64,000 nt of DNA from Escherichia coli (GTDB lineage: Bacteria > Pseudomonadota > Gammaproteobacteria > Enterobacterales > Enterobacteriaceae), in NCBI RefSeq assembly GCF_003334305.1, contig NZ_QOWS01000002.1, one strand, 5' to 3'. Position 1 is the first letter of the stretch. Every line of letters starts with the position of its first letter. The position numbers and the translations under genes are program-made. Of this stretch, positions 15,992-16,880 are shown piece after piece. Below the pieces are notes generated by a model. That model did not search any database and was not told the DNA's origin. It saw only the letters and a program-made list of their open reading frames with translations.

Positions 15992-16034
15992 GGTTTATTC
16001 CTCATTGAGGGCGCTTTTATCATGTGTTGCTTAT

Positions 16035-16061
16035 TTATCGGCAAGGGACGGGTAATCTTTA
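16035..16061 (-). promoter_or_regulatory. Sigma-28 (FliA) class 3 promoter for flgMN
   Basis: Reverse strand TAAAGATT-N11-GCCGATAA against the consensus TAAAGTTT-N11-GCCGATAA; located in the 3' end of the flgA region upstream of flgM. Confidence 0.65.
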
Positions 16062-16066
16062 ACAGC

Positions 16067-16726
16067 TTACAGGTTTATAAGAATATTCCCATCTGCATCA
16101 ACAACGCCGCTGACTACCTGTCCCGATACCATGCGCACCCGCGCATTCTGTGCGACGGCTGCATTGTTCAGCGCCTGACCTTCTGCGTTGGCGCTAAACC
16201 CATCACCGCTGGCGATCACATTGACGCGTTGTCCCGCTTTTACCCGCCATGCCTGGCGAAACTGGGTTAACTGGATAGGTTGATCGGGTGATAGATCGCG
16301 CAGGCTAATGGCATCAACAAGTTGATTGATATCCAGCACCGTACGCGGTGGCAGGGTATCCAGCCGTCCGCGTTTTAGTTTGACATTGCCAGCTTCCAGC
16401 TTTCCTCCCCGCACAATGGGCATCGCGGCAACCACATAATTTCCTGTGGCCTGCACATTAACCTGTAAATATCGTTTGTCGTTACCGCAGCGTGCCAACA
16501 CATTCACATTGCCCCACAGGCGGGAATTATTGCTCATCGAAAGCAATGGCTGCTCGCATGGCGGTAGTAGATTGGGCGCTGTACGAATAGAAACACGAAC
16601 CTCATCACTTACCCCCGCGAGTTGGGCGCTAAAAAAGTTGTGCAATTGCGATGTGAGATTGCTCGCCGTACTTAACGGACTGAACAGTATCGCGATGATC
16701 GCCACGCTACGTTTTATTGTCAGCAT
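16067..16726 (-). CDS. flgA: Flagellar P-ring assembly chaperone FlgA
   Basis: 219 aa with signal peptide; divergent from flgB. Confidence 0.95.
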   Translation of the reverse strand: MLTIKRSVAIIAILFSPLSTASNLTSQLHNFFSAQLAGVSDEVRVSIRTAPNLLPPCEQPLLSMSNNSRLWGNVNVLARCGNDKRYLQVNVQATGNYVVAAMPIVRGGKLEAGNVKLKRGRLDTLPPRTVLDINQLVDAISLRDLSPDQPIQLTQFRQAWRVKAGQRVNVIASGDGFSANAEGQALNNAAVAQNARVRMVSGQVVSGVVDADGNILINL

Positions 16727-16880
16727 TTTCGCCCCCAGCCATTTCTACAACGTGAATTGTACCTGTCCGCAATGACCATCAACGGCATAAATAGCGACCC
16801 ATTTTGCGTTTATTCCGCCGATAACGCGCGCGTAAAGGCATTTAAGCTGATGGCAGAATTTTGATACCTGCGGAGGAGAT
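16727..16880. promoter_or_regulatory. Divergent flgA / flgB class 2 (FlhDC-dependent) promoter region
   Basis: 154-bp spacer between the divergent flgAMN and flgBCDEFGHIJ operons; the FlhDC box itself was not delineated. Confidence 0.5.

Follow-up and report, generated by a model that had tools for sequence, protein, structure and literature searches.

Sigma-28 promoters described around flgM and flgB

The class 3 promoter of flgMN in E. coli K-12 and Salmonella lies in the flgA–flgM spacer, and is the closest described counterpart of the first element considered here. A two-promoter arrangement, with a class 2 promoter for flgA and a class 3 promoter for flgM, has been stated explicitly in a review. 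A FliA (sigma-28) site found by ChIP-seq, TAAAGATTACCCGTCCCTTGCCGATAAA, was assigned to flgMN with a FAT score of 48, and overexpression of fliA restores flgM expression in an flhD deletion strain (Fitzgerald et al. 2014, PMC4183435). The same study describes flgMN as also being reached by class 2 transcripts that read through flgA, giving the overlapping operons flgAMN and flgMN. Because FliA drives flgM, the anti-sigma gene is controlled by the sigma factor that its product inhibits. FliA in this way drives its own inhibitor, which ties expression of the late genes to a finished hook-basal body.

A second described system occupies the flgA–flgB spacer, where flgAP2 and flgBP2 form a pair of divergent sigma-28 promoters with one shared −35 element (Klimova, Forrest, Sharma, Haycocks, Grainger, Nucleic Acids Res 2026, PMC12781870). 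The authors call the −35 element of flgBP2 “particularly poor,” and report that mutation of its −10 element leads to loss of the sigma-28 transcript in vitro. Without MarA, the sigma-28 holoenzyme opens only positions −9 and −8 at flgBP2. When MarA is located between the −35 and −10 elements it distorts base pair −11, and full opening follows. This protein distorts base pairs 5 bp to either side of its site, the −11 pair of flgBP2 among them, and a mismatch made in advance at −11 substitutes for it. The MarA site lies within the site for FlhD4C2, which overlaps both P2 promoters, and FlhD4C2 represses the two (Klimova et al. 2026). MarA activates flgBP2 in vitro and in lacZ fusions, and the rise of flgB::lacZ expression that depends on salicylate and MarA is abolished when flgBP2 is deleted. 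The P1 transcripts are shorter than those from P2 by 23 nt for flgA and 25 nt for flgB. The evidence for flgBP2 comes from purified components and from plasmid reporters with ectopic sigma-28 (Klimova et al. 2026).

An FlhDC ChIP peak (FAT 13/16) is also located between flgA and flgB, and deletion of flhD reduces the values for flgA from 319 to 3 and for flgB from 2664 to 9 (Fitzgerald et al. 2014).

An earlier sequence-only reading of the DNA examined here had called attention to one motif upstream of flgM and another upstream of flgB. We estimate a probability of roughly 90% that both correspond to promoter elements that have been described before in the E. coli flg cluster, namely flgMp (class 3) and the −10 element of flgBP2. 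The flgM FliA promoter is textbook knowledge and flgBP2 was published in January 2026, and so both elements are already known. What appears to be new is limited to a contrast in conservation between the flgM and flgB sites and an overlap of the flgB octamer with one arm of the FlhD4C2 operator. The value of the work as a discovery is thus small, and the comparative addition is modest. FliA occupancy, in vitro transcription, the mechanism of MarA action and the differences in transcript length are taken from the papers, and positions, statistics, identity with published sites and conservation patterns were established in the present analysis.

The locus in the window

The DNA analysed, a 64-kb stretch of E. 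coli chromosome that we refer to as the window, carries the gene content murJ–flgNMA / flgBCDEFGHIJKL according to its open reading frames and the RefSeq annotation. The genes that frame the two motifs are as follows.

murJ, + strand: from the open reading frames and RefSeq annotation
15277-15693, minus strand: flgN, open reading frame and RefSeq; fed by the flgM class 3 promoter
15698-15991, minus strand: flgM, open reading frame and RefSeq; fed by the flgM class 3 promoter
16067-16726, minus strand: flgA coding sequence, an open reading frame with its stop, which divides the flgA–flgM spacer from the flgA–flgB spacer
16881-17297, + strand: flgB, open reading frame and RefSeq; followed by flgC to flgL

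The stretch of immediate interest, 15992-16880, begins at the base just upstream of the flgM ATG and ends at the base just ahead of the flgB ATG, and its flgA–flgM spacer measures 75 nt (15992-16066). Every one of the 5426 complete E. coli genomes contained a 1401-nt query covering the region, many of them at 100% identity. Between 15862 and 16863, four positions distinguish the window from MG1655, every one of them within flgA, and both spacers have the K-12 sequence up to the point at which the K-12 locus ends (window 16863).

General-purpose scans added little. A generic sigma-70 scan of 15650-16950, which demands a −35 match, recovered no known class 2 promoter, and a terminator scan of the same interval gave terminator-like hits at the level of shuffled sequence. 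In a search of 15200-17400 against Rfam at E≤1, neither the flgM leader nor the spacers showed a known RNA family; the sole hit, to mir-127 (E=0.45), was far under the gathering score and was rejected.

The flgM class 3 promoter

The sequence-only reading had proposed a near-perfect FliA promoter on the reverse strand, inside the flgA–flgM spacer, that feeds flgMN independently of the class 2 flgA promoter. The reverse complement of 16035-16061 is TAAAGATT ACCCGTCCCTT GCCGATAA, and these 27 nt fall wholly within the spacer. The parts of the promoter are listed below.

16054-16061, minus strand: sigma-28 (FliA) −35 element of flgM, TAAAGATT, from reading and pattern match; TAAAG in 79 of 79 loci
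16043-16053, minus strand: promoter spacer of 11 nt, ACCCGTCCCTT; length 11 at every locus
16035-16042, minus strand: sigma-28 −10 element of flgM, GCCGATAA; identical to the flgMN FliA ChIP-seq motif
15992-16027, minus strand: class 3 5′ UTR of flgM, 36 nt, with a probable +1 near 16027 and the Shine-Dalgarno sequence GAGGAA inside it

With 15 of 16 positions matching, the site carries a single mismatch to the FliA consensus TAAAGTTT-N11-GCCGATAA and has the spacing of 11 nt. It is the sole match with ≤1 mismatch in the window, and 100 dinucleotide-preserving shuffles yielded none. When up to three mismatches were permitted, the pattern occurred three times in the window against 0.46 expected. 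One sigma-28-like sequence with three mismatches, at 18115-18141 in flgD, was taken as a chance match given this expectation of 0.46 at the same stringency; it has no entry in the stretch of the FliA site table of Fitzgerald et al. (2014) that was consulted.

The window also agrees letter for letter over 28 nt with the flgMN site TAAAGATTACCCGTCCCTTGCCGATAAA that was recovered by FliA ChIP-seq. The site at 16035-16061 is therefore the established class 3 FliA promoter of flgMN, distinct from the FlhD4C2-dependent promoter of flgA. Its proposed independence is upheld by the ChIP-seq site, by the recovery of flgM expression on fliA overexpression in the flhD deletion strain, by the review and by the conservation footprint across 79 loci described below. 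We encountered no evidence against reading the site as the flgM promoter. In position within the flgA–flgM spacer and in two-promoter logic it corresponds to flgMp of E. coli K-12 and Salmonella. Because the spacer is that of MG1655 and the site is the one bound by FliA in K-12, there is no difference to report, and the window holds the same element in another strain.

Two routes lead to the same transcription start site. If the first A of the octamer is numbered −11, following Klimova et al. (2026), then counting 11 nt from that base (16038) predicts a +1 at 16027. An flgM construct designated “+1 to 105” (Romilly et al. 2020) consists of the UTR plus 23 codons, and because it ends after codon 23 the leader should be 36 nt long with its +1 likewise at 16027. 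The start site is one that others have mapped. RNA polymerase carrying sigma-28 binds the two boxes, TAAAGATT and GCCGATAA, set apart by the canonical 11 nt, and transcription from about 16027 yields an flgM-flgN transcript with a 36-nt leader, whose synthesis does not depend on the FlhD4C2/sigma-70 promoter ahead of flgA.

The flgB octamer and flgBP2

The second motif had been described by the sequence-only reading as a perfect −10 octamer without a good −35 element. On the + strand, positions 16817-16824 read GCCGATAA, an 8/8 match located 56 nt ahead of the flgB ATG at 16881. The block 11 nt upstream, CCCATTTT, matches TAAAGTTT at only four of eight positions and so does not qualify as a −35 element, in line with the “particularly poor” −35 noted by Klimova et al. 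(2026). Both parts of the description therefore stand. The sigma-28-related features of the spacer are the following.

16817-16824, + strand: sigma-28 −10 element of flgBP2, with A-11 at 16821 and a probable +1 near 16832; from the Table S1 oligonucleotides
16798-16805, no strand assigned: poor −35 block used back to back, CCCATTTT for flgBP2 and AAAATGGG for flgAP2; from geometry and scores
16779-16786, minus strand: sigma-28 −10 element of flgAP2, GCCGTTGA, a 6/8 match, with a probable +1 near 16771
16796-16815, minus strand: MarA site (marbox), approximate, between the −35 and −10 elements of flgBP2; position estimated from the text of the paper

We placed flgBP2 on the window by means of the oligonucleotides in Table S1, the transcript lengths and the text of Klimova et al. 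(2026). The published flgBP2 fragment, ATCAACGGCATAAATAGCGACCCATTTTGCGTTTATTCCGCCGATAACGCGCGCGTAAAGGCATTT, is identical to window positions 16778-16843. In the same table, the primer for mutagenesis of the flgB sigma-28 −10 element spans 16803-16834 and changes bases of the octamer, and the corresponding flgA primer covers the GCCGTTGA octamer. The mismatch template oligonucleotide departs from its wild-type partner at a single base, the one facing the first A of GCCGATAA; this adenine is the A-11 of the authors. Because of the positions of the flgB primer and the mismatch oligonucleotide, the octamer can be equated with the −10 element of flgBP2, with A-11 at 16821 and the start of transcription expected near 16832.

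The geometry fits as well. The block at 16798-16805 is exactly 11 nt from the −10 octamers of both flgBP2 and flgAP2, as would be expected for the published shared −35 element. In one place the flgA primer reads …GATGGTGATTGCG and the window reads …GATGGTCATTGCG. Strain polymorphism was rejected as the cause because the window is identical to MG1655 there; the primer carries either a deliberate change or a copying slip in the table, and nothing here depends on it. Compared with the flgAP2/flgBP2 system as described, the window has the same octamer as −10 element, the same poor shared −35 element and the same overlapping sites for FlhD4C2 and MarA, and there is no difference in sequence.

According to the published mechanism, flgBP2 is a secondary sigma-28 promoter for flgBCDEFGHIJ that starts near 16832 and has a poor −35 element in common with its mirror image, flgAP2. 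Sigma-28 holoenzyme alone opens it in part, and MarA situated in the gap between −35 and −10 distorts position −11 to bring about full opening. FlhD4C2 covers and represses it.

As a sequence, GCCGATAA is not rare, with nine copies on both strands of the window compared with 2.25 expected. By hand calculation (2.25/128000 × 154), the 154-nt spacer should contain only ~0.003 copies in the flgB orientation. The 66-nt core of the flgA/flgB spacer is identical in 5297 of 5426 E. coli genomes.

The FlhD4C2 operator and the class 2 promoters

Bartlett and colleagues are said to have been the first, in 1988, to note consensus sequences upstream of FlhDC-controlled operons. The FlhD4C2 consensus, reportedly given by Stafford in 2005, consists of inverted half-sites AA(C/T)G(C/G)N2-3AAATA(A/G)CG that are ~10-12 bp apart. 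On the strength of this consensus we take 16781-16822 to be the FlhD4C2 operator of the flgA–flgB spacer. The class 2 features are listed below, with the hexamers and start sites as estimates.

16781-16822, no strand assigned: a single FlhD4C2 operator with left arm AACGGCATAAATAGCG at 16781-16796, a 10-bp centre and right arm CGTTTATTCCGCCGAT at 16807-16822; by-eye match to this consensus
16843-16848, + strand: probable sigma-70 −10 hexamer TAAGCT of flgBP1 (class 2), with +1 at about 16855-16857
16756-16761, minus strand: probable sigma-70 −10 hexamer TACAAT of flgAP1 (class 2), with +1 near 16748

The left arm, AACGGCATAAATAGCG, matches the consensus in full, and the right arm matches it in part when reversed (ATCGGCGGAATAAACG). 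Six of the eight bases of the flgB octamer, GCCGAT, form the outer end of this right arm. These six bases do double duty: besides being part of a sigma-28 −10 element, they form the outer edge of the operator through which FlhD4C2 activates flgAP1 and flgBP1, both of them sigma-70 promoters.

Conservation of the two sites

We collected the corresponding locus in 80 further Enterobacterales species, ranging from Escherichia to Pantoea, Yersinia, Dickeya and Edwardsiella, all of which retain the gene order flgM–flgA/flgB. Upstream of flgM, a sigma-28 site matching at ≥12 of 16 positions was found in 79 of 79 loci, versus none of 80 control coding stretches. All 79 loci have TAAAG and CCGAT, with the boxes 11 nt apart in each case, and the middle columns of the promoter spacer carry 0.03-0.45 bits. 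The −10 columns have frequencies of.99 for G,.95 for C, 1.0 for CGAT and.90 for A. Within E. coli, a 51-nt query covering the flgM promoter is identical in 5180 of 5426 genomes. Conserved boxes at fixed spacing around a drifting spacer are the pattern that a working sigma-28 promoter should leave.

The same octamer has fared differently ahead of flgB. Across 81 sequences, columns 1-8 (G C C G A T A A) hold 0.47, 0.08, 2.0, 1.46, 2.0, 2.0, 0.61 and 1.0 bits, respectively. Only C-G-A-T is kept across genera, and the positions specific to sigma-28 vary; in the flgM −10 element, by contrast, conservation of columns 1-6 amounts to 95-100%. Of the 80 species sampled, E. coli and E. albertii alone have the perfect octamer. 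Its counterpart is GGCGATAA in Citrobacter and Salmonella and GTCGATAA in Enterobacter, and more distant genera have GACGATGG, TTCGATGG, ACCCATCG and others. At positions 7-8, GG replaces AA in Pectobacterium and Pantoea.

The FlhD4C2 operator, in comparison, holds its shape. Its core frame, AAATAGCG-N13-YTATTC, has identical spacing in 81 of 81 sequences. On the flgB side a TA...T hexamer occurs 32-33 nt after TTATTC in all 81, and on the flgA side such a hexamer is present at one fixed offset in 78 of 81. Because the frame and the fixed-distance hexamers recur in this manner, the design conserved across Enterobacterales is one FlhD4C2 box with two flanking, probable sigma-70 −10 hexamers; the 42-bp operator and its two hexamers represent an invariant design over the 80 species. 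The sigma-28-like octamers are built on the outer ends of the operator, upon conserved CGAT and TT.A cores. For the bases of the flgB octamer, selection across Enterobacterales has kept the operator role and not recognition by sigma-28.

Sigma-28 input into flgB

In defined assays flgB does receive sigma-28 input, which in cells is probably small or conditional. The second half of this statement follows from three observations: the stretch of the FliA ChIP-seq site table of Fitzgerald et al. (2014) that was consulted contains no site at flgB; FliA overexpression in an flhD deletion strain produced no rise in flgA or flgB expression, as indicated in the same report including the legend of its Fig. 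S6; and those positions of the octamer that are specific to sigma-28 vary beyond Escherichia. Klimova et al. (2026) state that flgAP2 and flgBP2 were missed by a global sigma-28 study and suggest that FlhD4C2 occupancy hides the sites. The portions of their report used here give no chromosomal start at about 16832.

The sequence-only reading had left flgB with a choice between coincidence and weak class 3 input. The published mutagenesis and MarA activation (Klimova et al. 2026) settle this in favor of a weak, conditional sigma-28 input, and coincidence is refuted by that same mutagenesis and by conservation of the CGAT core.

The strongest competing explanation holds that the flgB octamer is in essence FlhD4C2-operator sequence together with the −35 region of flgBP1, that its likeness to a sigma-28 −10 element is a by-product of how the operator arm is composed, and that living cells make next to no sigma-28 transcript from it. 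This explanation accounts well for the restriction of conservation to C-G-A-T over 80 species, for a second base with just 0.08 bits, for a perfect match found only in Escherichia and for a conserved layout made up of an FlhD4C2 box and sigma-70 −10 hexamers. It is also compatible with the failure of FliA overexpression to rescue flgB in the flhD deletion strain (Fitzgerald et al. 2014) and with the oversight of flgBP2 by the global study that the 2026 authors acknowledge. Moreover, the left operator arm reads outward as GCCGTTGA, which is sigma-28-like as well. Despite these points we regard the explanation as doubtful, though with some real chance of being correct. Mutation of the octamer abolishes the sigma-28-dependent transcript in vitro, and deletion of flgBP2 removes the salicylate/MarA-dependent increase of flgB::lacZ (Klimova et al. 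2026). Furthermore, GACGATAA and GTCGATAA serve as −10 elements in otherwise strong flgM promoters, and for this reason the 7/8 octamer variants of other genera need not be dead.

That the octamer is a chance occurrence with no function whatever deserves almost no credence: it is short, about 2.25 chance copies are expected in the window and six other copies lack a −35 partner, but hardly any are expected in this spacer and orientation (~0.003), it lies in a block identical in 5297 of 5426 E. coli genomes and inside a frame kept in 81 of 81 sequences, and its published mutation affects transcription (Klimova et al. 2026). Chance was in this way rejected for both sites, by the 0/100 shuffles at flgM, by conservation and by published mutagenesis at flgB.

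Given the reading preferred here, in which the octamer is the −10 element of flgBP2, its perfect form being found in Escherichia only tempers the likely generality of the MarA/sigma-28 route into flgB. We speculate, while considering it unlikely, that the perfect flgB −10 element is an Escherichia-specific refinement of an FlhD4C2 arm that opened, in this lineage, a MarA-gated sigma-28 route to the hook-basal-body operon. If this were true, the sigma-28 route would be weak in Salmonella, Citrobacter and Enterobacter (G[GT]CGATAA) and absent from Pantoea, Pectobacterium, Yersinia and similar genera (CGAT[AG]G and variants). Topping up the flagellar rod and hook genes under stress would in that case be a recent acquisition in regulation and not something general to the enterobacterial flagellar cascade.

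Sigma-28-like octamers in other class 2 regions

When the class 2 regions of MG1655 were compared, a perfect GCCGATAA was found 33 nt before fliA and 37 nt before fliL, and GCCAATAA was found upstream of both fliE and fliF. In the same comparison, no sigma-28-like octamer occurred upstream of flhB or yecR. The complex promoters of fliA and fliL are cited as previously described by Fitzgerald et al. (2014), and are backed there by ChIP-seq and RNA-seq. The dual class 2/3 operons fliAZY and fliLMNOPQR thus resemble flgB in being FlhD4C2-dependent with a perfect GCCGATAA upstream of the first gene. They differ in that the data of Fitzgerald et al. (2014) support their dual regulation, whereas flgB was not rescued by FliA overexpression, and in that the flgB octamer abuts an FlhD4C2 arm and needs MarA. 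Because fliA, fliL, fliE and fliF also carry them, sigma-28-like −10 boxes recur in FlhD4C2-controlled regions and are not a peculiarity of flgB.

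FliA-dependent promoter of flgK

The spacer between flgJ and flgK carries the following feature:

24177-24203, + strand: flgK sigma-28 promoter, TCAAGTCC-N11-GCCGATAA

This element ends 33 nt upstream of the flgK ATG, which lies at position 24237. The motif reported for flgKL from FliA ChIP-seq (Fitzgerald 2014; PMC4183435) is identical to this sequence. Because the match to the published motif is exact, the element is the flgK class 3 promoter and was already known.

Other sigma-28-like sequences

A second sequence of this general form lies within a coding region:

18115-18141, + strand: sigma-28-like match inside flgD, CAAAGTTA-N11-ACCGATAA, with three mismatches relative to the FliA consensus

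Chance alone would give 0.46 matches at this stringency (no more than three mismatches), and the site is absent from the part of the FliA site table of Fitzgerald 2014 (PMC4183435) that was consulted.

Exact copies of the -10 octamer are present at six additional locations in the window:

4128, - strand: GCCGATAA
17208, + strand: GCCGATAA
37506, - strand: GCCGATAA
39274, - strand: GCCGATAA
40146, + strand: GCCGATAA
62335, + strand: GCCGATAA

In total, GCCGATAA occurs nine times in the window vs. an expected 2.25, and none of 100 shuffled sequences reached this number. A pattern search of the window found no -35 partner with three or fewer mismatches for any of these six octamers, which may owe their presence to codon usage rather than to promoter function.

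Similar octamers were observed upstream of other flagellar genes in MG1655. A perfect GCCGATAA is located 33 nt upstream of the fliA ATG, and another is 37 nt upstream of the fliL ATG. The sequence GCCAATAA precedes both fliE and fliF, and the fliE copy is the reverse complement of TTATTGGC, which resembles an FlhDC arm. The MG1655 regions upstream of flhB and yecR have no comparable octamer.

Sigma-70-type hexamers in the flgA/flgB spacer

Hexamers of the sigma-70 type flank the FlhD4C2 box on either side:

16756-16761, - strand: TA...T hexamer
16843-16848, + strand: TA...T hexamer

On both sides, the distance from box to hexamer is constant in 78-81 of the 81 sequences compared (the window and the flg loci of 80 other Enterobacterales species). 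The intervening 10-20 nt are nearly unconstrained, with 0.0-0.3 bits on the flgA side.

The primer listed for mutagenesis of the flgA -10 element (Klimova et al. 2026; PMC12781870, Table S1) reads GATGGTGATTGCG, whereas both the window (16765-16777) and MG1655 read GATGGTCATTGCG. Either the primer carries an additional, undeclared change or the table entry is a typographical error.

Length variation between flgF and flgG

The flgF-flgG intergenic region (about 20435-20560) is ~33 nt longer in the window than in strain E2865. The sequences on either side align at ~99% between the two, leaving ~125 nt vs. 92 nt that do not align, and the difference looks like a variable intergenic insert.
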